DNA from: a virus | Taxonomy: Duplodnaviria > Caudoviricetes | Length of the DNA stretch: 24,303 nt | IMG/VR virus record: IMGVR_UViG_3300009496_000071 | Coordinates: 1-24,303 of that record | Reading direction: 5' to 3' (one strand) | Shown here: one piece after another, positions 1,103 through 17,200 of the stretch | Layout: every line of letters begins with the position of its first letter | Numbering within the stretch: the first letter of the stretch is position 1 | Translations under genes and position numbers: made by a program | Notes under the pieces: generated by a model | The model's input: the letters and a program-made list of their open reading frames with translations, nothing else | The model's database searches: none | What the model was told of the DNA's origin: nothing

Positions 1103-1331
1103 AGCAGTACATGAACTTATAAGGGTAGCTGAAGAAGAAATAATAGTTGAAGGCAGCGAAGACGAACTTGCTGCTGATAGATTAAAAAACGCGGCTGCTA
1201 CTAAAAAATTAGCAATTTTTGATGCTTTTGAAATATTAACCCGTATTGAAGCAGAAAAAAACCTAATGGAAAATAAACCCGCTGAAGATAAACAAAGCTT
1301 TAGTGGATTTGCTGAAAGAAGATCTAAGTAA
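1056..1331 (+). CDS. Small helical protein upstream of TerL, possible terminase small subunit (91 aa)
   Basis: Overlaps the previous gene by 47 nt and is coupled to terL by TAATG; helical and charged; function inferred from position only. Confidence 0.6.
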   Translation: MNVKDLKSNIIQAGYKAVHELIRVAEEEIIVEGSEDELAADRLKNAAATKKLAIFDAFEILTRIEAEKNLMENKPAEDKQSFSGFAERRSK

Positions 1332-3538
1332 TGTACGAGCAATATCTAGTAAAAACAATAACACCTATTAAGCCTAATGTTATAAAGCGAATGAATCGCT
1401 ATAACAAATGGGATTATGGCTATAATAAGGAATATGATATAATAGTCATAAGCAAGGATGGAAAGATTGGCGAGATAATAAAGATTCAAAATTTGTGTAT
1501 AGCATTACCAGAGCAGCCTAAAGACATTAGTAAAAAAACTGATAGATGGACTCCGGCAGAATACCCAAAAGAATTAAATCAAATAAAAAGTATATTTGAT
1601 TGGGAAAGCTATCCAGAAACATTTAAATCCAATTGGTATGAATATATTGATAAAGAGTTTACAAAACGTGAAGAAGGTCATTGGTTCAATAATAAAGGTA
1701 ATGCTACTTATATTACTGGTACTCACTACATGTACTTGCAGTGGACTAAAATTGACGTTGGGCGACCCGATTTTAGAGAAGCCAACAGATTATTTTTTAT
1801 CTTCTGGGAAGCTTGCAAAGCTGATAAACGATGCTACGGACTTTGCTACCTCAAAAACAGACGATCAGGCTTTAGTTTTATGGCGTCAGGGGAGACCGTT
1901 AACCAAGCAACAATATCATCCGATTCAAGATTTGGAATACTTTCTAAGACTGGAGCGGATGCAAAAAAGATGTTTACTGACAAAGTCGTGCCAATATCGG
2001 TTAACTATCCCTTCTTCTTTAAGCCAATACAAGACGGAATGGACAGGCCAAAATCAGAACTCGCCTATAGGGTCCCCGCTTCAAAGCTTACCAAAAAGAG
2101 TATTACAAAGACCAGTGAAAAGCAAATACTAGAGGGATTAGATACAACAATAGACTGGAAAAATACAGGTGACAACAGTTATGATGGTGAAAAATTAAGA
2201 CTGTTAGTTCACGATGAATCAGGAAAATGGGAAAGACCTGATAATATATTAAACAATTGGAGGGTAACAAAAACTACTTTACGATTAGGTAGCAGAATTA
2301 TTGGAAAGTGTATGATGGGTTCAACGTCAAATGCTTTAGAAAAAGGTGGCGGAAACTTTAAAAAACTGTACAATGACTCAGATGTTACCAGAAGAAATAA
2401 AAATGGACAGACTAGCTCGGGACTATATAGTTTGTTCATACCTATGGAATGGAACTACGAAGGATACATTGATTCTTATGGATACCCTGTATTTGATACT
2501 CCAGAAGAACCCATACTTGGCAATGACGGAGATTACATTGAAACAGGTGTAATTAATTTTTGGGAAAACGAAGTAGATGGATTAAAACATGATTCAGATG
2601 GCTTAAATGAATATTATAGACAATTCCCAAGAACAGAAGAGCATGCATTTAGAGACGAAGCAAAAAATAGTATATTTAATTTAACAAAAATATATGAGCA
2701 AATAGATTATAACGAAGACCTTGTAAGACAAGGAGTTATAACTAAAGGTTCATTTTCTTGGGAAAATGGTATTAAAGATAGTAAGGTTATTTTTAATCCA
2801 AACCCATCTGGTAGGTTTTTAGTTTCATGGGTTCCTCCTAAGAACCTGCAAAACAACGTAATAGTAAAGAATGGAGTCAAACAACCAGGTAATGAGCATA
2901 TGGGTGCTTTTGGTTGTGATTCATATGATATATCAGGTACAACTGATGGAGTAGGATCTAAAGGATCGTTACACGGGCTTACTAAGTTCAGTATGGAAGA
3001 TGCTCCAACAAGCACATTTTTTTTAGAATATGTAGCAAGACCTCAAACCGCTGAAATATTTTTTGAAGATATGTTAATGGCTATTATATTTTATGGTATG
3101 CCAATATTATGTGAAAATAATAAGCCCCGTTTATTATATCATATTAGGAGAAGAGGTTATAGAGGGTTTTCAATGAATAGACCGGATAAAGTCTGGAACA
3201 AACTATCTGTAACAGAAAAAGAAATTGGGGGAATACCAAATACCTCTGAAGATATTAAACAAGCTCATGCTGCTGCAATTGAAACTTACATAGAAAAACA
3301 TGTAGGTGTTAATGAAGATGGTGGTGGTAATATATATTTTAATAGAACATTAAACGATTGGGCTAAATTTGATATAAATAAAAGAACAAAGTTTGATGCA
3401 ACAATAAGCTCAGGATTAGCTATAATGGCCTGTAATAGACATTTATATCATCCTAAGCCAAAATACGAAAAGTCTAATTTAGACTTAAAAATTTCAAGAT
3501 ATAACAATAAAGGTACGCATTCGCAAATAATACAATAA
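1331..3538 (+). CDS. terL: Terminase large subunit (735 aa)
   Basis: Walker A-like YLKNRRSGFS, Walker B LLVHDESGK, coupling motif GST, RNase H-like nuclease motif GAFGCDSYD and C-terminal FDATIS; immediately upstream of portal. Confidence 0.93.
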   Translation: MYEQYLVKTITPIKPNVIKRMNRYNKWDYGYNKEYDIIVISKDGKIGEIIKIQNLCIALPEQPKDISKKTDRWTPAEYPKELNQIKSIFDWESYPETFKSNWYEYIDKEFTKREEGHWFNNKGNATYITGTHYMYLQWTKIDVGRPDFREANRLFFIFWEACKADKRCYGLCYLKNRRSGFSFMASGETVNQATISSDSRFGILSKTGADAKKMFTDKVVPISVNYPFFFKPIQDGMDRPKSELAYRVPASKLTKKSITKTSEKQILEGLDTTIDWKNTGDNSYDGEKLRLLVHDESGKWERPDNILNNWRVTKTTLRLGSRIIGKCMMGSTSNALEKGGGNFKKLYNDSDVTRRNKNGQTSSGLYSLFIPMEWNYEGYIDSYGYPVFDTPEEPILGNDGDYIETGVINFWENEVDGLKHDSDGLNEYYRQFPRTEEHAFRDEAKNSIFNLTKIYEQIDYNEDLVRQGVITKGSFSWENGIKDSKVIFNPNPSGRFLVSWVPPKNLQNNVIVKNGVKQPGNEHMGAFGCDSYDISGTTDGVGSKGSLHGLTKFSMEDAPTSTFFLEYVARPQTAEIFFEDMLMAIIFYGMPILCENNKPRLLYHIRRRGYRGFSMNRPDKVWNKLSVTEKEIGGIPNTSEDIKQAHAAAIETYIEKHVGVNEDGGGNIYFNRTLNDWAKFDINKRTKFDATISSGLAIMACNRHLYHPKPKYEKSNLDLKISRYNNKGTHSQIIQ
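1668..2132 (+). CDS. Putative overprinted lipoprotein in the +1 frame of terL (GTG start 1668; alternative ATG 1638)
   Basis: Frame is stop-free from 1587 to 2129; N-terminus MKKVIGSIIKVMLLILLVLTTC is a basic-hydrophobic-Cys signal peptidase II pattern; terL codons here shift to C-ending forms. Confidence 0.5.
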   Translation: MKKVIGSIIKVMLLILLVLTTCTCSGLKLTLGDPILEKPTDYFLSSGKLAKLINDATDFATSKTDDQALVLWRQGRPLTKQQYHPIQDLEYFLRLERMQKRCLLTKSCQYRLTIPSSLSQYKTEWTGQNQNSPIGSPLQSLPKRVLQRPVKSKY

Positions 3539-3539
3539 T

Positions 3540-5963
3540 ATGGCCGAATCAATTTTAAAAAGTTCATTTCCTAGTCAAATTGCTAGTGATGCTGAAAAAG
3601 CAAGCTCAGAGTATGGGGCAAAAGTAGCAAGAGCTATTGAACACGAGTGGTTTAAAAGAGATAGTGGTGCAACACGTTTTTATTCAAATAGAGATGAGTT
3701 TCACAGATTAAGATTATATGCAAGAGGCGAGCAGTCTGTTAAAAAATATAAAGATGAGTTGTCTATTAACGGCGATTTGTCTTATCTTAATTTAGACTGG
3801 AAGCCTGTACCTATTATACCTAAGTTTGTAGATATTGTGGTAAATGGCATGTCTGACAGATTATATGATATTAAAGCGTACTCACAAGATAGTTCTAGTA
3901 TAAAAAAAAGAACAGAATACGTTGAGTCTGTGTTGGCTGATATGCAAACAAGAGCAATATCAGATCAAATACAGCAGGAGCTTGGAATTAATGTGTATAG
4001 CAATGATCCTGCAACATTACCTCACAACGAAGAAGAGTTGGCTTTACGAATGCAATTAGAATACAAACAATCTATAGAAATTGCACAGGAGCAGGCTATT
4101 CACGTTGTTTTAAATACTAATAAATATGACCTATTAAAAAGACGTATTAATTATGATTTAACTGTAATTGGTATTGGAGCGACAAAAAATACATTTAATA
4201 AAGCTGAGGGAATTAAACTAGAGTATGTTGACCCCGCTAATTTAGTATATTCATATACAGATTCACCTTATTTTGATGATATATATTATATTGGAGAAAT
4301 AAAAAGTGTTACATTAAATGAATTAAAAACACAATTTCCTGATTTAGATAATGAAGAACTTCAAAAGCTTAGTAAGCAAGGAAGTCAAACTTCTGCTGCT
4401 CATAATAGGTTTATAAATGAGGACAGTACATTAGATGCAAACACAATACAAGTTTTATATTTTAATTTTAAAACATATAAGAACGAAGTATTTAAAATAA
4501 AGAAAACAGCAACAGGTGCTGATAAAGCTTTAGCTAAAAATGATCAATTTAATCCTCCTAAGGATAAAAGAGCTGATTTTGAAAAAGTTTCTAGGTCTGT
4601 TGAAGTTATATATGATGGTGCGTTTGTAATTGGTGTTGGAAAATTACTTAAGTGGGAAATGGCTAAAAATATGACGCGCCCAAAAAGTGATACGTCTAAA
4701 GCTATGTTTAATTATAGCGTTGTAGCACCAAGAATATACAAAGGAAGAATTGAATCTTTAGTTAGTAGAATTACAAGTTTTGCTGATATGATTCAATTAA
4801 CACATTTAAAACTACAGCAAGTATTGTCAAGAATGATTCCTGATGGAGTCTATTTAGACGCTGATGGCTTGGCTGAAATAGATTTAGGAAATGGAACAAA
4901 TTACAATCCTCAAGAAGCATTAAATATGTTTTTCCAAACAGGTAGTGTAATTGGTAGATCTTTAACAGCCGACGGAGACATGAATGCGGGCAGAATGCCT
5001 ATTCAAGAGCTAACCTCTAATGGTGGTAATAATAAAATAAATTCTCTTATAAGCACTTATAATTATTATCTACAGATGATACGTGATGTTAGCGGATTAA
5101 ACGAAGCAAGAGATGGTAGTAAGCCAGATGCTAACGCTTTAGTTGGTATTCAAAAAATGGCTGCAGCTAATTCTAACACAGCTACTAGGCATATATTACA
5201 AGGAAGTATGTATTTAACTGTTAAAACAGCAGAAGCTATTAGTTTGCGTATATCCGATATATTAGAATTTTCACCAACTAGAGAATCTTTTATATCTAGT
5301 ATAGGTAGATTTAATGTAGCAACATTAGAAGAAGTAGCCAATATGCATATGCATGACTTTGGCATTTTTATTGAGTTAGAGCCAGACGCAGAAGAAAAGC
5401 AGCTGCTTGAAAATAACATACAACAAGCTCTTTCTAGAGACCAAATATATCTTGAGGATGCTATTGATATTAGAGAAGTTAAAAATTTAAAACTAGCTAA
5501 TCAATTATTAAAAGTACGTAGACGTAAAAAATTAGAGCAAGATCAAAAAATTTCACAAGCTAATATTCAAGCTCAAGCTAATGCTAATTCACAAAACACT
5601 CAGGTAGCTGCTCAAATGGAAGTTCAAAAGAACGAAGCTCTTACTGCACAAAAAGTAGAGTTAATACAAATAGAGTCAGAGCTTGAAATGCAAAAAATGC
5701 AAACTGAAAAAGAACTTAAGAAAGAACTTATGAAATATGAGTTTGATCTTAATATTGCTATTAAGCAACAAGACAATGATCTTTTAGATAAAAAAGAAAA
5801 ATATAAAGAAGATCGGAAAGATGAAAGAACTAGAATACAAGCTGGTCAACAATCTAAACTAATTGAGCAAAGAAAAGATCGAAAAGGAGAGCAAGAGTTT
5901 GAATCCGCTGGTAATGATACCATGGGTAGCGGATTTAATTTAGAAATGTTTGAACCAAGATAA
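3540..5963 (+). CDS. Portal protein (807 aa)
   Basis: Follows TerL; size and motifs (LDWKPVPIIPKFVDIVVNG, IRDVSGLNEARDGS) and a Gln/Glu/Lys-rich coiled-coil C-terminal barrel fit crAss-like/P22-type portals. Confidence 0.88.
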   Translation: MAESILKSSFPSQIASDAEKASSEYGAKVARAIEHEWFKRDSGATRFYSNRDEFHRLRLYARGEQSVKKYKDELSINGDLSYLNLDWKPVPIIPKFVDIVVNGMSDRLYDIKAYSQDSSSIKKRTEYVESVLADMQTRAISDQIQQELGINVYSNDPATLPHNEEELALRMQLEYKQSIEIAQEQAIHVVLNTNKYDLLKRRINYDLTVIGIGATKNTFNKAEGIKLEYVDPANLVYSYTDSPYFDDIYYIGEIKSVTLNELKTQFPDLDNEELQKLSKQGSQTSAAHNRFINEDSTLDANTIQVLYFNFKTYKNEVFKIKKTATGADKALAKNDQFNPPKDKRADFEKVSRSVEVIYDGAFVIGVGKLLKWEMAKNMTRPKSDTSKAMFNYSVVAPRIYKGRIESLVSRITSFADMIQLTHLKLQQVLSRMIPDGVYLDADGLAEIDLGNGTNYNPQEALNMFFQTGSVIGRSLTADGDMNAGRMPIQELTSNGGNNKINSLISTYNYYLQMIRDVSGLNEARDGSKPDANALVGIQKMAAANSNTATRHILQGSMYLTVKTAEAISLRISDILEFSPTRESFISSIGRFNVATLEEVANMHMHDFGIFIELEPDAEEKQLLENNIQQALSRDQIYLEDAIDIREVKNLKLANQLLKVRRRKKLEQDQKISQANIQAQANANSQNTQVAAQMEVQKNEALTAQKVELIQIESELEMQKMQTEKELKKELMKYEFDLNIAIKQQDNDLLDKKEKYKEDRKDERTRIQAGQQSKLIEQRKDRKGEQEFESAGNDTMGSGFNLEMFEPR

Positions 5964-5998
5964 CAAATACCCAACAATTAATTTTATAATATTTTATC

Positions 5999-7219
5999 AT
6001 GTCAGAAGAAACAACAAACCAAGAAGAAACTTTGCAGGAAACTGTAGAAAGTCAAACAGAAGTTCAACAAGAAGTTGCACAAGATGATGTACCGAAAAAC
6101 GTATCAGTTGATGAGGATGGTACTATTAAGATTGACTTAAGACAACAACCAGAAACACAACAAGAAGATGCCGTTCAAGAGCAAGAAACAACAAGCGTGG
6201 ATGTGGGCGAACAAACCACAAATAGCGAAGAAGTGGACAAAGAAGTACGGGCCGATAACGATGAAAGTCCAGTCGTCGAGCTCGTGCAAGATGAAGAAGT
6301 AGAAAATGTTCAAGAAACAATATTAGCGGATAAAATAAAAGATATTCCTAATAAGCTTAAAGAGCAAGAGGAAGACGTAAGTAATACTAGAGAGCTTCCT
6401 GAAAATGTAGATAAGCTAATAAGCTTTATGGAAGAAACAGGTGGAACGCTTGAAGATTACATAAGTTTAAATAAAGATTATGGTGCAATGGAAGATATGG
6501 AAGTACTTCGCGAGCACTATAGAAAAAGTAAACCGCACTTGGATGAAAGTGAAATTAATTTTTTAATTGAAGATTCTTTTTCATATGATGAAGACATTGA
6601 TGATGAAAGAGATATTAGACGTAAAAAATTATTATTAAAAGAAAGTATTGCTGAGGCAAAATCAAATCTAACTAGTTTAAAGGGTAAATATTACGATGAT
6701 CTTAAGTTAAGCTCAAAGTTAACTCCAGAACAAATAGAGGCGGTTGAGTTTTACAATAGTTATAAAGAAGAACAGGATTCTGTTCAGCAGCAGTCGCAAA
6801 AACAAAGAACTGTATTTGAAGAAAAAACAAATAATTTGTTTTCTGAAAGTTTCAAAGGTTTTGAATACAAAGTAGGGGATAAAAAATACAGATTCAATGT
6901 TAAAGATGTAAACAATGTTAAATCTACTCAGTCAGATATTAATTCGTTAGTTAGCAAGTTTGTTAACAATAATAATGAAATGTCAGACGCAGCAGGTTAC
7001 CATAAAGCATTATTTACAGCGATGAATGCTGACTCTATTGCTAATCATTTCTATGAACAAGGTCGAGCAGATGCAATTAAAACGCAAATGCAAGAATCTA
7101 AAAACATAGATATGGGACCACGGGGAACGCATGAAGCGGTAACCACGGACTCAGGGGTTAAAATTAGAGCTGTTGCAGGAGACGATTCTTCGCGATTAAG
7201 AATAAAAATGAAACAATAA
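5999..7219 (+). CDS. Acidic capsid scaffolding/assembly-like protein (406 aa)
   Basis: Between portal and MCP; very Glu/Gln/Asp-rich disordered N-terminus, helical core, ANHFYEQG motif, basic C-terminal tip. Confidence 0.7.
   Translation: MSEETTNQEETLQETVESQTEVQQEVAQDDVPKNVSVDEDGTIKIDLRQQPETQQEDAVQEQETTSVDVGEQTTNSEEVDKEVRADNDESPVVELVQDEEVENVQETILADKIKDIPNKLKEQEEDVSNTRELPENVDKLISFMEETGGTLEDYISLNKDYGAMEDMEVLREHYRKSKPHLDESEINFLIEDSFSYDEDIDDERDIRRKKLLLKESIAEAKSNLTSLKGKYYDDLKLSSKLTPEQIEAVEFYNSYKEEQDSVQQQSQKQRTVFEEKTNNLFSESFKGFEYKVGDKKYRFNVKDVNNVKSTQSDINSLVSKFVNNNNEMSDAAGYHKALFTAMNADSIANHFYEQGRADAIKTQMQESKNIDMGPRGTHEAVTTDSGVKIRAVAGDDSSRLRIKMKQ
6168..6302 (+). CDS. Overprinted small basic protein MPFKSKKQQAWMWANKPQIAKKWTKKYGPITMKVQSSSSCKMKK (44 aa), +1 frame of scaffold gene
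   Basis: ATG 6168 to TAG 6300-6302 read directly; A-rich leader; matches the MPFKSxxQxxWMxANxPxxAKxW pattern I recognise from stand-alone small phage proteins; local excess of CG-containing codons in the host frame. Confidence 0.75.
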   Translation: MPFKSKKQQAWMWANKPQIAKKWTKKYGPITMKVQSSSSCKMKK

Positions 7220-7238: not shown

Positions 7239-8660
7239 ATGGGATTATTTAACACTGGTGGATCGTTTCCTGCGGGATTAACACCATCACCAACTAAAAC
7301 ACTATTTGCAGGTAACTACCTGACATTTGACTCTGCCTCTGGAGGTGGAACTTTTGCACAACAATTCTTACCAGACGTATATGAAAAAGAAGTTGAAAGA
7401 TACGGAAATCGTTCTGTAGCTTCTTTCTTACGTATGGTTGGAGCTGAAATTCCTTCTGCTTCAGATCAAATTATTTGGTCAGAGCAAGGAAGATTGCATA
7501 TTGCTTATGATGATGCAACTCTTACTGCTGCAACAAGCGTTGTTGCTAAAGCTGGTCATGCTGTTCGTTTAGGACAGACTGTTGCTATTTCTCAAGGGCT
7601 TACAACTGTTAAAGCCGTAGTTACTGTTGTAGCTGCTGGACAATTTACTGTTGCACCCTACACAGCAGAACATCTTGATGATGCAGGCTTAGCTGACGGA
7701 ACTGCTAAAGTATTTGTTTACGGTTCTGAATTTGCTAAAGGAACTGCTGGAATGCAAGGATCTGTAGATGCTGGTTTCCAACAATTCAGCAATTCACCAA
7801 TTATTATTAAAGACAAGTATTCAATTTCAGGATCTGATGCTGCTCAAATTGGGTGGGTAGAAGTAACTACTGAAAATGGAGCGTCTGGATATTTATGGTA
7901 TTTAAAATCTGAGCATGAAACACGCTTACGTTTTGAAGACTATTTAGAAATGTCTATGGTAGAAGGTGAAAAAGCTGCTGCAGGTTCTGGAGCTCTTGGA
8001 GCAAGTTACAAAGGTACTGAAGGTCTTTTCGCTGCAATTGAAGGAAGAGGTAATATTTATCAAAACTTTAATTCAGGTGAAGCTACTTTAGCAAACGCTG
8101 GATCAGATCGTACTGCTTTACAAGATTTTGATGAAATTCTTAAGAACCTTGACAAGCAAGGAGCTATTGAAGAAAACATGCTTTTCTTAAACAGAGCTAC
8201 CGCGCTTGCTTTTGATGATATGCTAGGAGCTGTAAATGCTCACTATAATGGTGGATCTTCTTTTGGAGTATTCAACAACAGTGAGGATATGGCACTTAAC
8301 CTAGGATTTAGCGGTTTCCGCAGAGGATCTTACGACTTCTACAAAACTGACTGGAAATATTTAAATGATGCTGCTACACGTGGACTTACTGAAGATATTG
8401 ATGGTGTACTTGTGCCTGCTGGTACTTCGACTGTATACGATCAGCAATTAGGTAAGAACATTAAGCGTCCTTTCTTACATGTACGTTACCGTGCTTCAGA
8501 AGCTGATGATAGAAAAATGAAATCTTGGATCACTGGATCTGTAGGTGGAGTTTATACTTCTGACGTTGATGAAATGAACGTTAACTTCTTGTCAGAAAGA
8601 TGTTTATGTGTTCAAGGAGCTAACAACTTTACTTTATTCAAGTCTGTTACTCAATCATAA
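7239..8660 (+). CDS. Major capsid protein (473 aa)
   Basis: Position after portal/scaffold; motifs QQFLPDVYEKEVERYGNR, WSEQGRLH, GTEGLFAAIE, GFSGFRRG; high-expression codon bias (GCT, CGT, TTC, AAC); followed by a terminator. Confidence 0.88.
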   Translation: MGLFNTGGSFPAGLTPSPTKTLFAGNYLTFDSASGGGTFAQQFLPDVYEKEVERYGNRSVASFLRMVGAEIPSASDQIIWSEQGRLHIAYDDATLTAATSVVAKAGHAVRLGQTVAISQGLTTVKAVVTVVAAGQFTVAPYTAEHLDDAGLADGTAKVFVYGSEFAKGTAGMQGSVDAGFQQFSNSPIIIKDKYSISGSDAAQIGWVEVTTENGASGYLWYLKSEHETRLRFEDYLEMSMVEGEKAAAGSGALGASYKGTEGLFAAIEGRGNIYQNFNSGEATLANAGSDRTALQDFDEILKNLDKQGAIEENMLFLNRATALAFDDMLGAVNAHYNGGSSFGVFNNSEDMALNLGFSGFRRGSYDFYKTDWKYLNDAATRGLTEDIDGVLVPAGTSTVYDQQLGKNIKRPFLHVRYRASEADDRKMKSWITGSVGGVYTSDVDEMNVNFLSERCLCVQGANNFTLFKSVTQS

Positions 8661-11218: not shown

Positions 11219-14200
11219 ATGGCAGAATTAAAGCACACTTTTCAGTCCGGAAGGATGAACAAAGACTTTGATGAAAGGTTACTTCCAAATGGTGAATATA
11301 GAGATGCTCTAAATATTCAAATATCTTCTTCAGAAGGCTCAGATGTTGGCGCTATTGAAAACATACTAGGTAATAAAAAGTTATCTAGTATTAATTTAGA
11401 AAATGCTAAAACAATTGGAGTAATTGCCCACACTTTAAAAGATAAAATATATTGGTTTATTTGTGCAGATAATATTGATGGCATATATGAATTTGATCAA
11501 CAACAAGGAACAATATTACCTATACTTATTGATAAAAAAATAACGTTATCTAAGGTATTAACTTCAATAAATGTTGAATCAAATAGTGATAATGAATTAG
11601 TACTTGATAATATATTAACAACTGAGTTAAAAGAGCTGTGTGGCGCTTTGCCATTAAACAATGATGATGAAGTATTGGTTAACAACAACCTAGACTTAAC
11701 CTGTGCAGATCCTTATATTAAACTTTCAATACCTAAAAATTCGGTATTAAGAAAAGAGAATAATAAATATGTATTTAAGAATGTAGAGTATAATGGTCAA
11801 TCTTATGGTAAGATAGATTTAAGCTTTGTGTATAGCACAGACTCTGTTTTAAATTTTTCTAAAAGCAATTTAATTACAGGTGTAAACATCATTGATGATA
11901 TGTTATTCTGGACAGACAACTTAAATCCTCCAAGAAAAATAAACATCCCTACGTTTAAAAAGTTTTCTAACACTGTGTACCCAAATACGCCCGGTATTTT
12001 TAATACTCAAACAGTAGTAGTATTTGACAAAAAAGACACGAATGGAAATGTTACACAAGGTAATAGAACTTTTACTGAAGAAGATATAAAAGTAGCTAAA
12101 AAAGCCCCTTTATTTGCTCCATCTTTGCTGTTAGAAAAATTCTTAGGTAATGGAATTTATGAAATAAATAAAAAAATAAATTTTTACCAGCAATCATCAG
12201 CTGGTGTAGCCGGACAGGGTAACAAAGTGATAGGTGTTGGTGATGATCTTACTCTATCTGGTTTAACAACATTACCTAGTTGGAGTGTTGGTAACAGTAT
12301 AAGATTAACTGGAGATGAAATAAGTGGAAACGGGGAACTAAATAGCATAGGTACTTTAAAGTCTATTGGTGTGGATAGTGCTGTAATAACTATAACAAGT
12401 CAAGATAATATACCTACTATTAATGATTATTCTGTTAAACTAGAATTAATAGTAAAAGATCCTATATACGAATTGGAATTTGTTAGATTTGGATATAGAT
12501 GGAAATATAAGGATGGTGAATATTCTGCATTATCTCCATTTTCAGAATCTGCTTTTATACCCGGCGAATTTGATTATGATGGTAAAGAAGCATTCAATAA
12601 AGGAATGCAAAACAACATAAGAAAAATAACATTGTCTAATTTTGATTTAGGAGACGACAATATTGAAGAAATTGAAATATTATTTAAAGAAACAAGAAAT
12701 CAAAATATATACACATTACAAGCTGTAAAAAGATTAGGTTTTTTAAACAATTATGAAATAACTAAAAAACAAATACATTCTGTATTGCCTAATGATCAAT
12801 TGCTAAGGAGTTGGGATAATGTACCAAAAGTTGCTAAAGCACAAGAAGTTACAGCTAATAGGATAATATATGGTAATTACAAGCAAAACTATGATATATA
12901 TAATGAACCTATTTTTGATATATATTTAGGTGCAAGAAGTGATAACTTTAAAAGATCAATAAAATCAAACAGACCATATCAAGTAGGAGTTGTTTATATG
13001 GATAGTGATAACAGACACTCTCCTGTGCTTTCAAATCAAACAGGTACAGTTTTTGTTGATAAAAATCAATCTGTTTTTGAAAACTGCTTTAACATATCTT
13101 TAAAAAACAATCCACCCGCTTGGGCAAAATATTTTAAATATTATATAAAAGACACTTCCAACGAATATTATAACTTAACAGCTGACAAATTTTACCATGA
13201 TACCGAAAATGGATATAGTTATATTTCTTTTCCATCTACAGAACGAAATAAAATAACAGATAAAACTTATTTATTATTAAAAAAGCAGCACGGGGCAAAT
13301 AAAGCTGTTTTAAACACTAACAATAGATATAAAGTTATTGATATATTTAATGAACCACCTGATTTTGTATCTGAAATTAAAAAACAAGTATATAGCCTTT
13401 CTAATATACAATTTGGAGCTGGATTGCAAATTGAAACCCCTAAAACAACCAAAGCTGACAATTTAACGCCTACTGAAAATAGTACAAAAATTGTTATTTT
13501 AGCCGCTAATAACGGAGATCCTGACAATACACCATTAGGTATATCTAACACAGATAAAGAACAAATTTTAAAAAATAGATATATACAATTTCAAATAGGG
13601 GGTCAAACAAGCAGACCATATAAAATAAAAAAATTAAATTATAATAATTTATTGGTTGACGATTTAGAGCTTACTATTGATGAGTCTTTTGGAAATGATG
13701 TAAATTTTATATATAACGCAGATGACACATTAAAAGACGGTATATCTATTAATATATTAGAAGTAAAAAACGAAAAAGGAGCAAAGCAATTTGATGGAAG
13801 ATTTTTTATTAAAATTAGAACAAACGCAACTTTATTAAACTCTGAAGTTTCTTCTAATATAGTAGGAGAATATCAAAATGTAGATTCTTACCAATTAGAT
13901 GGAAACCATGCCTACAAAAACAACAGACAGCGTTCTAAAAATAATGCAGACGAAAACCCGCAATATCCAATTTGGGTTGCAAGGGGTGGTTTAAAAACAA
14001 ATGCGTTTACATTAGCTGGTATTAATGGAAAATTTAGTATTCAATTTGAAGAGGCTACTGTAAACCAAGATGAATCAATTATTAAAAAATTTAGTGTTGG
14101 AACTAAATTACAATTTGGCACTGATGAAACTATTTATGAAATAAGTAAAGCTGTTTTTACTAAACTTGAACTAAATAATAAAAAGGAAGTATCTAAAGTG

Positions 14201-17200
14201 TCTTTAGAATTTGCAGACGCAGAGGGTAATAATTTACCTTTAAAAGAGGAGGTGGTGATACCACAGCAGCACGCAAAAGAAAAAGTTACATTAAATATAG
14301 TTGAATCGGTTGACGATGAAAAAGCTTTTTTTACTAAGAATCCAGCAATATTCGAAACAGAACCATTAGAATCTATTACAGAGCTTGATCTTTATTTTGA
14401 AACAGAAAAAGCATATCCAATTAGTGAACATGGCAAAGTGCAATCATTAAAATGGTATAATACTTTTTGTTTTAAAAATGGGGTTGAATCTAATAGAATT
14501 AGAGATGATTTTAATAATATTTATATAAGCACTGGTATTAAGGCTTCTGCTACTTTATCAGAACAATTTAAAGAAGAACACAAGTTTAATGGATTAATTT
14601 GGTCTGGAATTGTTAATTCAAGAACAGGCATTAACAAATCAAATGAGTTTAATCAAGCTAATACAATAACTAAAGATTTATTACCATCATATGGTAGTAT
14701 TCAATTACTAGACGCATGGGACGATCAAATAATTATTCTTTGTGAAGATAAAATTGTTAGAGCTTATGCTGATAAGGATATATTATATAATGCAGATGGT
14801 AATCCAAACGTAGTAGCAACTAATAGAGTAATTGGAGCAATACAGCCTTATTCAGGAGAATATGGTATATCAAACAATCCAGAGTCTTATGCTAAATATG
14901 GCTTTAGAGCTTATTTTACTGATAAAATGCGTGGAGAAGTGTTAAGGTTATCAAGAGATGGTCTTACTCCTATTAGTAAATTAAATATGTCTTCTTTTTT
15001 TAAAGATAGGTTTTTTAGCAAAGGCTGTTATAACTCAAATACAGAGTTAACTGATATTCTTGGATCTTACGATAATTACAATGATTTGTATAACGTTTCT
15101 TTTGCAAATCAAGATACGGTTTGTTTTGATGAAAATGTTAGCGGGTGGGTAACACGAAAATCTTTTGTTCCAGAAAATGCAATTTCCTTAAATAATAAGT
15201 ATTATACATTTGTAAATGGAGAACTTTGGGAACAAGACACTAAGGATGTTCCTTATAATAATTTTTATGATACACAATATAATTCTTTAGTTGAGCTAGA
15301 AATTAATGATAACCCTTCAGTTATTAAAAACTATAAAACACTAAGTTATGAAGGAAGCTCGGGATGGACAGCAAATATTGTAACTGATCAGCAAAAATCA
15401 AATGATTTTGCGTTTATTCCTAAAGAAAACAAATACTTTACTAATATTCCAGGAGAAGTAAGAACTATTGAAAATGTTGACCCTAAAAATTTTAACTTTC
15501 AAGGGGTTGGGCAAGCTTTATCTATAAGCGCAATTAGTGCAGCAAATAATACAAACATTACTTTTGATATATCTCCTAGTGAGACTACATCGTATAAATC
15601 ATCGCCCAAGATTTTAACAAATACTCCTGGAGCAAAACTGCCTTCAACTGTTGATATAAAAATATTTTCAAAAAATAACTATACTTTAGATGCAAGCAAG
15701 TTTAATTTAAAAAATGTTATTGCAACTAATGATGGTGAAGACGTTATTTTAACTTACACACATGGTTTAAAAATTCAACCTTCTGCAAATAAAAGTATAA
15801 ACTTGGAATTATGCAAAATTAATTTTGCATCTAAAAAAGATATATCAACAACAGGTAACTATGTTTTGAGTGGTAATAATTATACAACAACCAAGGGCAG
15901 CGGAAATTATTCTGTTATTGGTAATACTAACGTAATAAAAAATATTACCTCAAGAACAATAACTCCTGCTGATGGTTGGACAATAACAGAGGCTGATATT
16001 GCTATTGACAATCCTAATATATTAATAACAAAACAAACAAATAAAGACGGGAGTATAACGTTATTTGAAAAAATAATTATAGGGGAAGGTAGTGAAACAA
16101 ATATAAATTATACAATAACAGTAAACCCTAAAGAAGAAGTAGTCAAAACCAAAACAATACTTTACTACGATTTAGATGAGTCTAACGTAACACCTAATAA
16201 CAATATTAGATTATTAGAAGTTTATGGTGATCCTGGTGCTGAATTTGCTTATATATTAACGGATACTTCTGGAGAAATTAAAAAAGAAATTAAACTTACA
16301 ATGCCCAATTCTGGTGTTTATGAGGACACTTTAATTTTTCCAACCGGTACAACAGACGAAACGTTTAATGTTAAAATAAGCTCAGGAGACGGGACGGTTT
16401 TAAGTTCAGATATTGTAGATGCGGTAATATACAGAAAAGCTAAAGCAGCACTATCTTTTACTTTCATATCACAATTTAATGATGTTGTAAGTAACAAGGT
16501 AACGCTAAAAGGTTTTACAGGTGATGTAATTAGATCCTCTTTTTCTCAAATTATACAACTTCCTACAGCGGTTTACACGCTTCAAAGACAACCCCAAAAA
16601 TCTGATATTGTTTTTGATTTAGCTGGAGATAATATTAATATTTATAATCTTAATGCAGTATTAGATGATGTTGCTGATACTTTGACCATTACAGGTGAAA
16701 TTGAAGTTGACAATATAATTGAAAACAATAAAGGTATATTAACCTTAGATAGTATTATAAATGAACAAATAACATTAACTATTGATTTTTCAAATATAAC
16801 AACCAACTCATTAGCTACAACAAATTATTCATGGGATCCAAATCCAACAACACATACAATAACAGGTGGTAAAAAACTACCTGCTGAAATATTAAATAGT
16901 TATAATTTTACTTTAACTCCAACGGCAGGTTATAGATTTTTAAATTCTATAACCAATGAAAGTTTTGTTTTAGTCAATGCTTCTAATAATAATGTGTTGA
17001 GTACTTATGCAAATAATAATGAATTAACATTAAGTATTGATGATGATGGATTAAAAATAGGTTTTGATACATTAAAATTCAATCTTCCTGATTCAACACA
17101 AACAATAACTATAAGACCAACAGCGCAAATATCAGAATTAATTACTATTGACTCTTCATATAGCTTATTATACGTTCCTTTAGATAGTGAGGATAGACTA

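Follow-up and report, generated by a model that had tools for sequence, protein, structure and literature searches.

We found that positions 6168 to 6302 of the window, the 24,303-nucleotide stretch of viral DNA analysed here, most probably (at a probability of about 0.8) hold a real and expressed gene of the phrog_1375-type family, its translation being predicted, which lies nested out of frame within a larger ORF. A sequence-only reading had claimed a +1-frame, ATG-initiated ORF of 44 amino acids at this site, and the ORF listing gave identical coordinates and an identical translation. The offset from the start of the host ORF (6168 - 5999 = 169) places the small ORF in +1 phase and wholly inside the host ORF on the same strand (Table 1). 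One stretch of DNA is therefore read both as a polyanionic segment (16 D+E, 2 K+R) and as a polycationic peptide (12 K+R, 0 D+E by composition count; pI 10.5), as the same reading had stated. Many alternative-frame ORFs of 30-50 amino acids occur in the window, so that an open +1 frame alone is within chance. Read in +1, an acidic frame made largely of GAA and CAA gives many Lys codons and few stops, and distant relatives that do not carry the motif are likewise open in +1 at the overlap. The evidence that exceeds chance is the family match together with frame-specific conservation, and not the open frame by itself.

Table 1. Coordinates of the nested gene, its host ORF and the neighbouring head-module genes in the window.
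Feature	Position	Strand	Remarks
Large terminase gene	1331..3538	+	phrog_6681, E 7.2e-171
Portal gene	3540..5963	+	phrog_6547, E 7.9e-149
Host ORF, putative scaffold by position only	5999..7219	+	406-aa acidic protein, pI 4.5; between portal and capsid-like genes
Leader of nested gene	6138..6167	+	+1-frame TAA at 6138-6140, then 27 A-rich bases to ATG; predicted SD-independent initiation region
Dual-coded stretch of host ORF, codons 57-101	6167..6301	+	Acidic linker, 16 D+E, 2 K+R; stop-free
Nested small gene	6168..6302	+	44 codons and TAG stop, ATG start; +1 frame of host ORF 5999..7219
Conserved core, codons 1-32	6168..6263	+	Family domain; predicted helix 6-15, Pro17, helix 17-27
Variable Ser/Lys-rich tail, codons 33-44	6264..6299	+	Length and sequence vary among relatives
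Major-capsid-position gene	7239..8660	+	phrog_13704 virion structural protein, head and packaging, E 4.1e-106

The motif named in the sequence-only reading turned out to mark a real family, phrog_1375, whose tiny phage proteins are very numerous. The nested peptide matched this family over residues 3-26 (E 1.5e-5), as did a second nested variant and relatives, and a family profile search returned 3309 protein cluster representatives at E<=1e-3, 361 of them at <=1e-10. This is a family of more than 3000 sequence clusters for which no function is known. Gene-called homologues were 36-50 amino acids long and up to 86% identical over 28 residues, and ORF length among relatives ranged from 40 to 49 amino acids. 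Across 76 family members, M1, P2, F3, S5, Q8 and P17 were invariant, and K7, A14, A20 and W23 were kept in at least 90%. AlphaFold2, run on the window's peptide only with 76 sequences, placed helices at residues 6-15 and 17-27 (mean pLDDT 75.6), with values of 86, 92 and 80 for the first three ten-residue blocks and 53-54 for the tail. The predicted fold is thus a helix-Pro-helix hairpin followed by a tail that would be disordered and Lys-rich.

Searches for a named relative gave little. Neither the window peptide, nor 11 relatives, nor the 76 family members matched Pfam DUF3008 (PF11450) at E<=1, and a wider Pfam scan of the peptide, its relatives and 30 long family members gave nothing meaningful; the ESM Atlas returned only unnamed viral clusters, one of them a neighbour at 0.83, where DUF3008 was present in 15% of the members. 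When the 30 long members were scanned against PHROGs, one tape-measure-like stretch was seen in P0065 and otherwise nothing, and tblastn of the long member P0017 against GenBank phages gave no match. Profile matches of the peptide to the PDB were to designed repeat proteins only and were discarded as spurious, being sums of weak repeats each with an i-E above 1e3; the same search with type-C peptides found nothing. The ribosome-rescue peptide ArfA was also considered: there was no PF03889 match at E<=1 among the 76 family members and 45 type-C peptides, and no ArfA chain appeared at E<=10 in the PDB profile searches. An Rz1-like o-spanin of a two-component pair was rejected as a candidate, as the peptide has no hydrophobic segment and a single Cys at residue 40, and its context is terminase-portal-capsid.

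The region upstream of the ATG was described beforehand as A-rich, and A indeed makes up 60% of the 20 bases 5' of the ATG, a value reached at just 4.7% of the window's 532 ATGs. The scaffold-frame codons that had been singled out as unusual (GCC, GGC, CGG, GTC GTC GAG CTC GTG) are likewise all present in the overlap, and GC content rises to 0.475 at 6160-6279 vs 0.23-0.39 around it. None of the 13 large genes of the window has a Shine-Dalgarno sequence. Among nested copies, A was found at -3 in a fraction of 0.77-0.98 and at -6 in 0.87-1.0. Passages in PMC6847099 describe Bacteroidetes as devoid of Shine-Dalgarno sequences and initiation as favoured by A at -3. Flavobacterium and Maribacter are the hosts of the nearest relatives in culture. 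Of 46 loci, about 20 fell in MAG bins labelled as Bacteroidota lineages, and the labels of the others were scattered over unrelated taxa, so that binning is unreliable as a guide to the host. Initiation at ATG 6168 may, as in Bacteroidota hosts, proceed independently of a Shine-Dalgarno sequence and rely on the A-rich leader and its A residues at -3 and -6. RNA-library contigs of X15, X16 and X18 span all or part of 6168-6302, which cannot show transcription, strand or ends, and those of X17 lie only on the flanks.

A different route to the basic domain would be a programmed +1 frameshift that joins the first ~50 residues of the scaffold to it, with no peptide made alone. Nothing direct favours such a shift beyond the overlap of both frames on one mRNA and the 9 open +1 codons that precede the ATG. 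Every one of the 61+14 unique nested copies that the motif picked out has the ATG, and the family match begins at Met1 in 145 of 150 cases among the matches listed. Given the +1 stop 10 codons upstream of the ATG, a shift would have to fall within 27 bases, which show no evident slippery run, and two +1 stops are conserved in the KVDL block. We consider a frameshift very unlikely.

Selection was measured in 25 distinct close relatives, where pN/pS was pooled over non-independent pairs and each frame constrains the other. Diversity at scaffold third positions was 0.000 at codons 56-75 (0.000-0.03 over the conserved core) vs 0.25-0.45 elsewhere, and scaffold first positions, which are the third positions of the small ORF, remained variable over the overlap. 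The drop in scaffold synonymous diversity begins already at about codon 46. A check of frame-specific selection had been proposed together with the gene, and it revealed strong purifying selection in the small +1 frame, whose pN/pS over the overlap was 0.07, the scaffold frame giving 4.19 there. Flanking values were 0.24-0.38 for the scaffold frame, which is under purifying selection to either side of the overlap, and 1.0-2.8 for the +1 frame; in the tail they were nearly equal, at 0.45 for the ORF frame and 0.49 for the scaffold frame. Over all 54 distinct nested type-A DNAs, pN/pS was 0.31 in the ORF frame and 1.64 in the scaffold frame, and these DNAs encode 53 different peptides in the scaffold frame against 31 in the small frame. 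Tree-aware counting on a FastTree topology gave Fitch minimum changes of 83, 51 and 165 at ORF positions 1, 2 and 3.

These patterns also bear on whether any small protein is made at all. RNA elements alone can produce synonymous constraint, and translation here is predicted; the conservation could then reflect RNA structure or a packaging or regulatory signal, or the stretch could be a silent relic of a captured gene. The periodicity of the constraint in the small ORF's own frame, the collapse of the 54 DNAs to 31 peptides and the homology of the peptide to stand-alone proteins all argue against this. There was no Rfam match at E<=0.8 over 5800-6500, where one sub-threshold match is attributable to chance. 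A relic would be expected to decay, yet the frame is intact down to ~41% scaffold identity, and the copies that are truncated and decayed (L188, L217) look different. Conservation at the nucleotide level or a silent relic is therefore highly improbable as the explanation.

The scaffold frame is kept open as well. No stop occurs in this frame in 68 (54+14) distinct nested copies, random back-translation left it open in only 52 of 200000 trials, and in stand-alone copies the corresponding frame carries 3-9 stops in 17 of 17. T is absent from all 44 third positions of the ORF in the window, vs 41.5% in other genes, and makes up 2.1% over all type-A copies. Frame-specific selection, together with a scaffold frame that likewise stays open, shows the overlap to be truly dual-coding. 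The same observations weigh on the idea that ORF 5999-7219 is not one protein, with the true scaffold starting 3' of 6302, the small gene free-standing and frame 0 open by chance. Homology to cultured elemo phages begins only at residue 115, outgroup proteins are 339-357 amino acids long and the N-terminal 100 residues are of low complexity, all of which would fit a late start. The stop-free frame 0 and the avoidance of T at ORF third positions speak against it, as do the pN/pS of codons 1-50 (0.38 in frame 0 vs 1.26 in +1) and a conserved N-terminal M-[SA]-E-E; we judge it extremely improbable.

The host ORF is called a scaffold by position only. Its own match was to phrog_16786, of unknown function, and a search for a scaffold family gave no Pfam match, no annotated PHROG and no PDB relative at E<0.7; the homologue in an elemo phage is annotated as 'structural protein'.

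The distribution of the small gene was then compared with that of its host. Interruption of the +1 frame in close relatives, named beforehand as an outcome that would speak against the gene, was not borne out: the frame was intact in 31 of 37, and 2 more carried a second variant of the same family. The stand-alone homologues asked for in the other half of that test do exist, several of them in head modules just after the portal gene (L052, L054, L061, L075, L081, L110, L116 and 023Pt_psg01). Among GenBank phages, C75C1, 023Pt_psg01 and P-RSP2 have stand-alone copies, and the nested form was found in none of 50,697 GenBank records when cultured phages were searched. The family also occurs fused at the N-terminus of longer proteins, including in-frame forms with an acidic or helical tail (L081, P0020). 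Among the best 80 family loci in viral contigs, 50 lie within a scaffold homologue (40-100% identity), nested at its codon 40-72, and the early-branching ingroup clades of the scaffold tree all carry the nested gene. By estimate, ~5300 viral-contig stretches match patterns from the scaffold homologue L037 and ~6300 match peptide patterns. The nested arrangement is common to a large clade of uncultured marine podophage-like contigs.

Use of the slot is general. When 131 scaffold homologues were chosen regardless of the small ORF, 51 had this family and 59 an unrelated nested ORF of 40 codons, which is basic and likewise under selection; 21 had neither, so that the peptide is dispensable in some lineages. 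Some relatives have +1 ORFs of types D and E, represented by few sequences. DNA identity between the window and the relative L009 is 0.85-0.95 in the flanks and falls to 0.28-0.68 over 6159-6330, and the restriction of the drop to this interval points to a cassette swap. Close relatives thus exchange the nested gene as a cassette.

What the peptide does is a separate question. Its place beside the portal and scaffold genes suggests, on gene order only, a late role linked to the head, which we put forward tentatively, at somewhat less than even odds. The sequence-only reading had named a DNA-condensing core peptide and a head assembly factor as candidate roles. The gene may instead be real and expressed with a job unrelated to head assembly, being small cargo (a 'moron') that happens to occupy a tolerant site 3' of the portal gene; its product could be, for instance, a nucleic-acid- or ribosome-binding peptide, a host-takeover factor or an anti-defence factor. 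This is a serious contender, somewhat short of an even chance. Stand-alone copies do lie outside head modules, beside ferredoxin and endolysin genes (L067), beside a glycosyltransferase gene (L078) and in the early region of P-RSP2, and in the T7-like cyanophage L065 the gene adjoins psbA, a typical cargo island. The unrelated basic peptide family in the same slot of relatives may also mean that the slot tolerates any basic ORF. Against a cargo role, the gene recurs directly 3' of the portal in at least 7 loci whose portal is phrog_1216 and not the window's phrog_6547, and it is fused in frame to acidic or helical scaffold-like tails. Complex prediction of the portal with the peptide scored 0.00 in two runs that had no controls, which counts neither for nor against binding.

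For the nested gene itself, having many stand-alone relatives suggests that it was probably swallowed and not invented, and its origin would be the capture of an older stand-alone gene rather than invention inside the scaffold. Capture could have come about by upstream extension of the scaffold ORF or by insertion of a cassette. Nesting would couple both the expression and the inheritance of the small gene to the scaffold gene. A more far-reaching proposal is that the acidic N-terminal linker is a dedicated, exchangeable slot, that at least two unrelated +1 families of polycationic peptides of ~40 residues occupy it, separately maintained by purifying selection and swapped as cassettes between close relatives, and that peptide and polyanionic linker are working partners. 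The peptide could then, for example, free the scaffold or offset the charge of the DNA inside the head. This combined proposal is doubtful at present; if it were true, charge-complementary dual coding would be a functional design and not a by-product.

In our literature searches, we found no description of a nested out-of-frame gene in the scaffold gene of a tailed phage. Because standard gene callers disallow a gene within a gene, the conserved protein has gone unannotated throughout a large clade of phages, uncultured and mostly marine, and its presence hints that the portal-scaffold-capsid module includes a small factor that has so far escaped study. The overlap is also of a rare and well-sampled kind, in that the nested gene has many stand-alone relatives, an unrelated nested gene can fill the same slot and recombination exchanges the cassettes. 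The third codon position of the scaffold is the second of the small gene, so that either frame can be stopped by mutations to which the other is indifferent, and these would allow clean genetics.

Nested out-of-frame genes are a known kind in phages, with Rz1 in Rz and phiX174 E in D as examples. As in lambda Rz/Rz1, a small gene is here fully contained in a larger one on the same strand, in its +1 frame, and both frames are maintained; the same pair is separate in relatives, and unrelated families occupy the same kind of slot. Passages in PMC6139136 describe embedded, overlapped and separated architectures of two-component spanin genes. Unlike the spanin pair, the present pair sits in the head module and not in a lysis cassette, and the host gene encodes an acidic protein in scaffold position. 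The peptide has neither signal peptide nor lipobox and looks like a soluble, basic helical hairpin (predicted).

The microvirus phiX174 has a 5-kb single-stranded DNA genome, in which gene D encodes the external scaffolding protein and E a membrane lysis protein that is thought to be overprinted. Both cases have a small out-of-frame gene nested in a phage scaffolding gene. The present phage, in contrast, is a tailed double-stranded DNA phage, and its nested gene has thousands of stand-alone relatives, so that here the nested gene is probably the older partner. In-frame nested scaffold genes, such as lambda Nu3 within C and similar pairs, yield products that share sequence. Internal initiation in a head-assembly gene, predicted in our case, would likewise give a second head-module product, but here the frames differ and the products are of opposite charge.

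Compared with its phrog_1375 relatives, the window's peptide has the same M-P-F-x-S-x-x-Q ... P ... A..W core and a domain that starts at Met1. The relatives usually stand alone or make up the N-terminal part of longer proteins, whereas the window's copy is dual-coded, has no T at third positions and has a tail shaped by the overlapping acidic frame. Passages of 10.1101/2022.12.13.520362 describe a C-terminal helix-turn-helix coat-binding domain in the P22 scaffolding protein. By description, and as a functional lead only, the present domain resembles it in being a short basic helical hairpin (predicted) in a head-assembly setting; unlike the P22 domain, it is N-terminal or free-standing.

The small ORF that the sequence-only reading had placed inside the scaffold gene was present exactly as written, and lies in the +1 phase of the acidic ORF that occupies the scaffold position of the head module and is a putative scaffold gene (table below). 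The 24.3-kb viral contig has an estimated completeness of 43%. The unusual composition reported for this site was also seen: GC content was 0.475 at 6160-6279 compared to 0.23-0.39 around it, and the rare G- or C-ending codons that had been listed are indeed in the scaffold frame, where G or C was found at 18 of 45 third positions in codons 57-101, compared to 9/56 before and 68/305 after. An open +1 frame at this site is by itself nothing remarkable, because the window has many alternative-frame ORFs of 30-50 aa, a GAA/CAA-rich frame shifted by one base becomes Lys-rich and stop-poor, and distant relatives lacking the motif are open there too. Two minus-strand ORFs cover the same stretch, probably as a consequence of its paucity of stops and its depletion in T. 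In relatives, a conserved K-V-D-L block about 10 codons 5' of the nested ATG gives two +1-frame stops (TAG and TAA), while in the window this region (6126-6146) has a sole +1 stop, the TAA at 6138-6140; the stops of this block shut the +1 frame just 5' of every nested ORF type.

Features of the window, and nested ORFs at the equivalent site of related loci (L-numbers, loci in viral contigs or genome bins)
Feature	Positions	Strand	Description
Large terminase	1331-3538		Head module
Portal	3540-5963		phrog_6547
Acidic ORF (scaffold position)	5999-7219		406 codons, between portal and capsid-like gene
Nested small ORF	6168-6302	+	ATG start, 44 codons, +1 phase of the 406-codon ORF
Minus-strand ORF	6126-6320	-	64 codons
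Minus-strand ORF	6137-6313	-	58 codons
Capsid-like gene	7239-8660		Head module
Giant ORF	11219-19249	+	2676 codons, downstream of head genes
Type C example, L152	1637-1756	+	40-codon basic ORF, +1 frame of scaffold homologue
Type D/E ORF, L037	3062-3181
Type D/E ORF, L123	1580-1699
Type D/E ORF, L180	1577-1696
Decayed-looking type B ORF, L188	~1666-1698		10 codons
Decayed-looking type B ORF, L217	within 2908-4074		22 codons

With the 406-aa protein as query, 37 loci of 47-100% identity were found in viral contigs. The sequence-only reading had asked whether the +1 frame is broken in close relatives; the same ORF was kept in 31/37, with its first 33 residues nearly invariant. In two of the 37 this site was occupied by another variant of the family (type B, core S-K-A-Q-M-R; the form in the window is type A), and four had neither. 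When 25 distinct type A sequences were aligned by codon, pairwise diversity at scaffold third positions was 0.000 at codons 56-75 and at most 0.08 up to codon 90, compared to 0.25-0.45 elsewhere, and scaffold first positions, which are the third positions of the small ORF, stayed variable across the overlap. The frame-specific comparison proposed earlier was performed as pooled Nei-Gojobori pN/pS; as the pairs lack independence and each frame restricts changes in the other, these and later ratios are descriptive. Over the DNA of small-ORF codons 1-32, pN/pS was 0.07 in the small frame, 4.19 in the scaffold frame and 1.34 in the third frame. The flanks gave 0.24-0.38 in the scaffold frame and 1.0-2.8 in the +1 frame, and the tail of the small ORF (codons 33-44) gave 0.45 in its own frame and 0.49 in the scaffold frame. 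Across 54 distinct nested type A DNAs, the small frame gave a pN/pS of 0.31 and the scaffold frame one of 1.64, and these DNAs encoded 31 distinct small peptides compared to 53 distinct scaffold-frame peptides. Fitch counts, made on a tree from C-terminal columns only, gave minima of 83, 51 and 165 changes at small-ORF codon positions 1, 2 and 3, with 106 amino-acid changes in the small frame versus 218 in the scaffold frame. The small frame is under purifying selection, an effect whose direction and magnitude are clear despite the non-independence of pairs. A nucleotide-level element is an unlikely cause of the conservation: such an element would not produce a codon periodicity in the small frame, and a search of Rfam around the small ORF found nothing.

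T was present at none of the 44 third positions of the small ORF, compared to 41.5% in the other genes of the window, and at 2.1% of third positions over all nested type A copies; T is avoided there because a T before a codon starting with AA, AG or GA creates a stop in the scaffold frame. When the peptide was back-translated at random with the codon usage of the window, the scaffold frame stayed open in 52/200000 cases, and the mean number of stops was 4.97. Each of the 17 stand-alone copies that were examined had 3-9 stops in the equivalent frame and T at 17-35% of third positions, and no scaffold-frame stop was found in 68 distinct nested copies (54 type A and 14 type B). Upstream of the overlap, at codons 1-50, pN/pS was 0.38 in frame 0 versus 1.26 in the +1 frame. 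Since the scaffold frame is kept stop-free, T is avoided at small-ORF third positions and selection acts on frame 0 upstream, the stretch is truly dual-coding and both frames are maintained. It does encode a polyanionic and a polycationic product, as had been proposed: in the scaffold frame the overlap reads as an acidic linker (16 D+E, 2 K+R), and in the small frame as a peptide containing 12 K+R but neither D nor E.

The MPFKS motif, earlier linked to free-standing phage proteins, indeed marks a family with stand-alone members. The peptide matched phrog_1375, annotated as of unknown function (E 1.5e-5, residues 3-26), and had no match in Pfam. A tblastn search of 50,697 GenBank phages gave 14 weak matches, and the three inspected were all short stand-alone ORFs with an M-P-F-x-S-x-K-Q start; stand-alone homologues are an unannotated 35-aa ORF of phage C75C1, an annotated 39-aa gene of phage 023Pt_psg01 and an unannotated ORF of cyanophage P-RSP2. 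Gene-called homologues of 36-50 aa, with identity up to 86% over 28 residues, were found in a collection of 5.8 billion proteins. A profile built from 14 members and run on 1.84 billion cluster representatives matched 3309 at E<=1e-3 and 361 at E<=1e-10, with the match starting at residue 1 in 145 of 150 among the matches listed, in proteins of 39 to 767 aa. An alignment of 76 members showed M1, P2, F3, S5, Q8 and P17 to be invariant, and AlphaFold2 with this alignment predicted two helices (residues 6-15 and 17-27) and a disordered tail after them (mean pLDDT 75.6; 86-92 for the first 20 residues). The long members are rich in Gly, Asn and Gln, and had no Pfam match and no informative PHROG family. 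Members P0008, P0012, P0015, P0017 and others, of 250-770 aa, share the same N-terminal domain, and several have a second, related A-Q-K-W..K-Y-G motif close to the C-terminus. P0017, which contains an H-E-x-x-H motif and was the only long member searched against GenBank phages, gave no match there, and a tape-measure-like stretch in P0065 was the sole PHROG match among long members. A subfamily of 60-63 aa (L055, L070, L071, L088, L096 and L101, ~4001-4189 each) has a conserved C-terminal P-R-G-F-N-L-M-L-P-N-K-R-P after the shared N-terminal domain.

No Shine-Dalgarno (SD) sequence was found for any of the 13 large genes of the window, whose leaders are AT-rich. Leaders of the nested ORFs were 56-59% A; among distinct leaders of types A, B and C (type C is a second family, described below), the fraction with A was 0.77-0.98 for position -3 and 0.87-1.0 for position -6, and scaffold synonymous diversity drops already about 10 codons 5' of the nested ATG. 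Baez et al. (2019; PMC6847099) describe Bacteroidetes mRNAs without SD sequences, whose translation start is favoured by A at -3. The cultured relatives found for the scaffold-position protein all belong to phages of Flavobacterium (68 records) or Maribacter (1 record); about 20/46 genome-bin matches are labelled as Bacteroidota lineages, a weak pointer to the host. Given the SD-less genes, the A at -3 and -6, the Bacteroidetes rule and the Flavobacterium and Maribacter phage relatives, independent SD-less initiation at 6168 is predicted and plausible. Metatranscriptome contigs from three runs span all or part of the small ORF (X15 from 6151, X18 from 6206 and X16 from 6275), which leaves RNA unproven; their two differences inside it are a Lys-to-Glu change known in relatives and a change synonymous in the small frame.

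The peptide profile, run over viral contigs, had matches in an estimated 6300 stored stretches. Among the best 80 loci, 50 were nested in the +1 phase at codons 40-72 of a 406-aa homologue with 40-100% identity, and the other 30 either stood alone or formed the N-terminal domain of a longer protein. None of the 50,697 GenBank phages of the collection had the nested form. A scan with the motif-less relative L037 gave 80 loci, of which 12 had type B and most of the remainder a different +1 ORF at the same site, usually of exactly 40 codons (type C). Type C was present in 55 of 70 unique scaffolds without the MPFKS motif (L123-L202), where scaffold third-position diversity was 0.07-0.17 at codons 46-100 versus 0.35-0.5 elsewhere. 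The type C frame gave a pN/pS of 0.21, compared to 1.54 when this DNA was read in the scaffold frame; for the flank, the scaffold-frame value was 0.24. Fitch counts were 65, 92 and 247 at positions 1, 2 and 3 of type C, which is also under selection. Profile-profile comparison with the first family, the phrog_1375-type proteins, gave a probability of 0.3%, and type C is, as judged from sequence, an unrelated family. Sub-threshold matches to Pfam DUF7230 were seen for 31/45 (best E 1.6e-4, 22.2 bits, cut-off 27), and the 5.8-billion-protein collection had only two gene-called copies. An HMM tally of 176 unique full-length scaffold homologues assigned 94 to the first family, 59 to type C and 23 to neither. 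The three samples picked by scaffold similarity alone (n=131) gave 51, 59 and 21, respectively; one of these three is the genome-bin sample, whose 32 full-length scaffolds gave 22, 3 and 7, the 22 taking in Cys-pair forms and one truncated copy. Cys-pair nested variants (K-A-C-Y-A ... W-x-C) occur at L210, L215, L229 and L226. Further +1 ORFs of 39-43 codons in the slot (types D and E) are also carried by L039, L124, L127 and L142, listed with L037 and L123, and by L195, listed with L180. Type D, a Lys/Arg/Leu repeat, resembles a cationic amphipathic helix and is mirrored in the scaffold frame by an E-E-V-I-E-E-T-T repeat; it may be a mere by-product.

A FastTree tree of the scaffold, from C-terminal columns only, was rooted on MW202828 (a spring-water phage) and Flavobacterium phage elemoF, both without any nested ORF. 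Early-branching ingroup clades all had the first family, whose presence or absence required at least 6 changes; type B required 6 (5 if just starred branches are fixed). The tree, whose root consists of two long branches and for which one sample was chosen by presence of the ORF, agrees with an early gain, subsequent losses and exchange of cassettes. Identity between the DNA of the window and that of L009 was 85-95% on both sides but fell to 28-68% over 6159-6330, where the lengths differ by 36 bases, and this pattern is direct evidence of exchange. From the decayed-looking type B ORFs of L188 and L217, the nested gene appears to be losable while the scaffold frame stays open. L204 and L215 lie on one 117-kb MAG contig (CBDICL010000005.1; bin labelled Flavobacteriaceae), as two different head-module copies about 63 kb apart, one of them 99% identical to the window; this contig looks like two phage genomes joined, and not a host chromosome. 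Because stand-alone members of the family number thousands and occur in unrelated phages, T7-like cyanophages and Streptomyces phages among them, and because the scaffolds of the outgroup are without the N-terminal region and shorter by 50-70 residues, we think that the small gene is the older partner; it would have been either engulfed when the larger gene was extended at its N-terminus or inserted into that gene. Capture would have involved the removal of about five stops via changes synonymous in the small gene, and a stepwise route would be feasible.

Stand-alone genes were found directly or closely after the portal at L052, L054, L061, L075, L081, L110 and L116, and in 023Pt_psg01; the portals of these seven loci are phrog_1216, unlike the phrog_6547 portal of the window. 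In the T7-like cyanophage L065 the family gene follows the portal and a head-assembly gene, fused forms at L074 and L091 are located after a 'virion structural protein', and in-frame forms with an acidic or helical tail were seen at L081 and in P0020. Copies outside a head context were also found, at L067 (with ferredoxin and endolysin), at L078 (glycosyltransferase) and in the early region of P-RSP2. Searches of Pfam and of PDB with profiles showed no likeness to ArfA. Judged from this context, a role as a late, head-linked accessory protein is a tentative proposal, to which we give somewhat less than even odds. The hairpin could dock on a partner in the head module (the portal, the scaffold or the inside of the capsid), and an acidic partner or DNA could be bound by the Lys-rich tail. 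Since an unrelated polycationic peptide fills the same slot, general charge properties may be what matters for its occupant, as the sequences suggest.

Taken together, the nested ORF is, by the sequence evidence, a real, unannotated gene within the scaffold-position ORF. The original observation was confirmed and its reading supported, in that the ORF is exact, the family real, the nested frame selected and the scaffold frame kept open. A full-text literature search found no description of an out-of-frame gene nested in a tailed-phage scaffold gene. Embedded phage genes are already known, as the Rz1 gene is embedded in Rz, and gene E of phiX174 lies inside scaffolding gene D. Rz1 in Rz has the same architecture and, as regards the host gene, E in D comes closest. 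Across phages, the Rz/Rz1 pair is present in embedded, overlapped and separated form (PMC6139136). The pair in the window differs from both Rz/Rz1 and E/D in its location in the head module and in its product, predicted to be a soluble basic hairpin, and the nested gene differs from both Rz1 and E in having a huge stand-alone family and a slot shared by unrelated nested genes.
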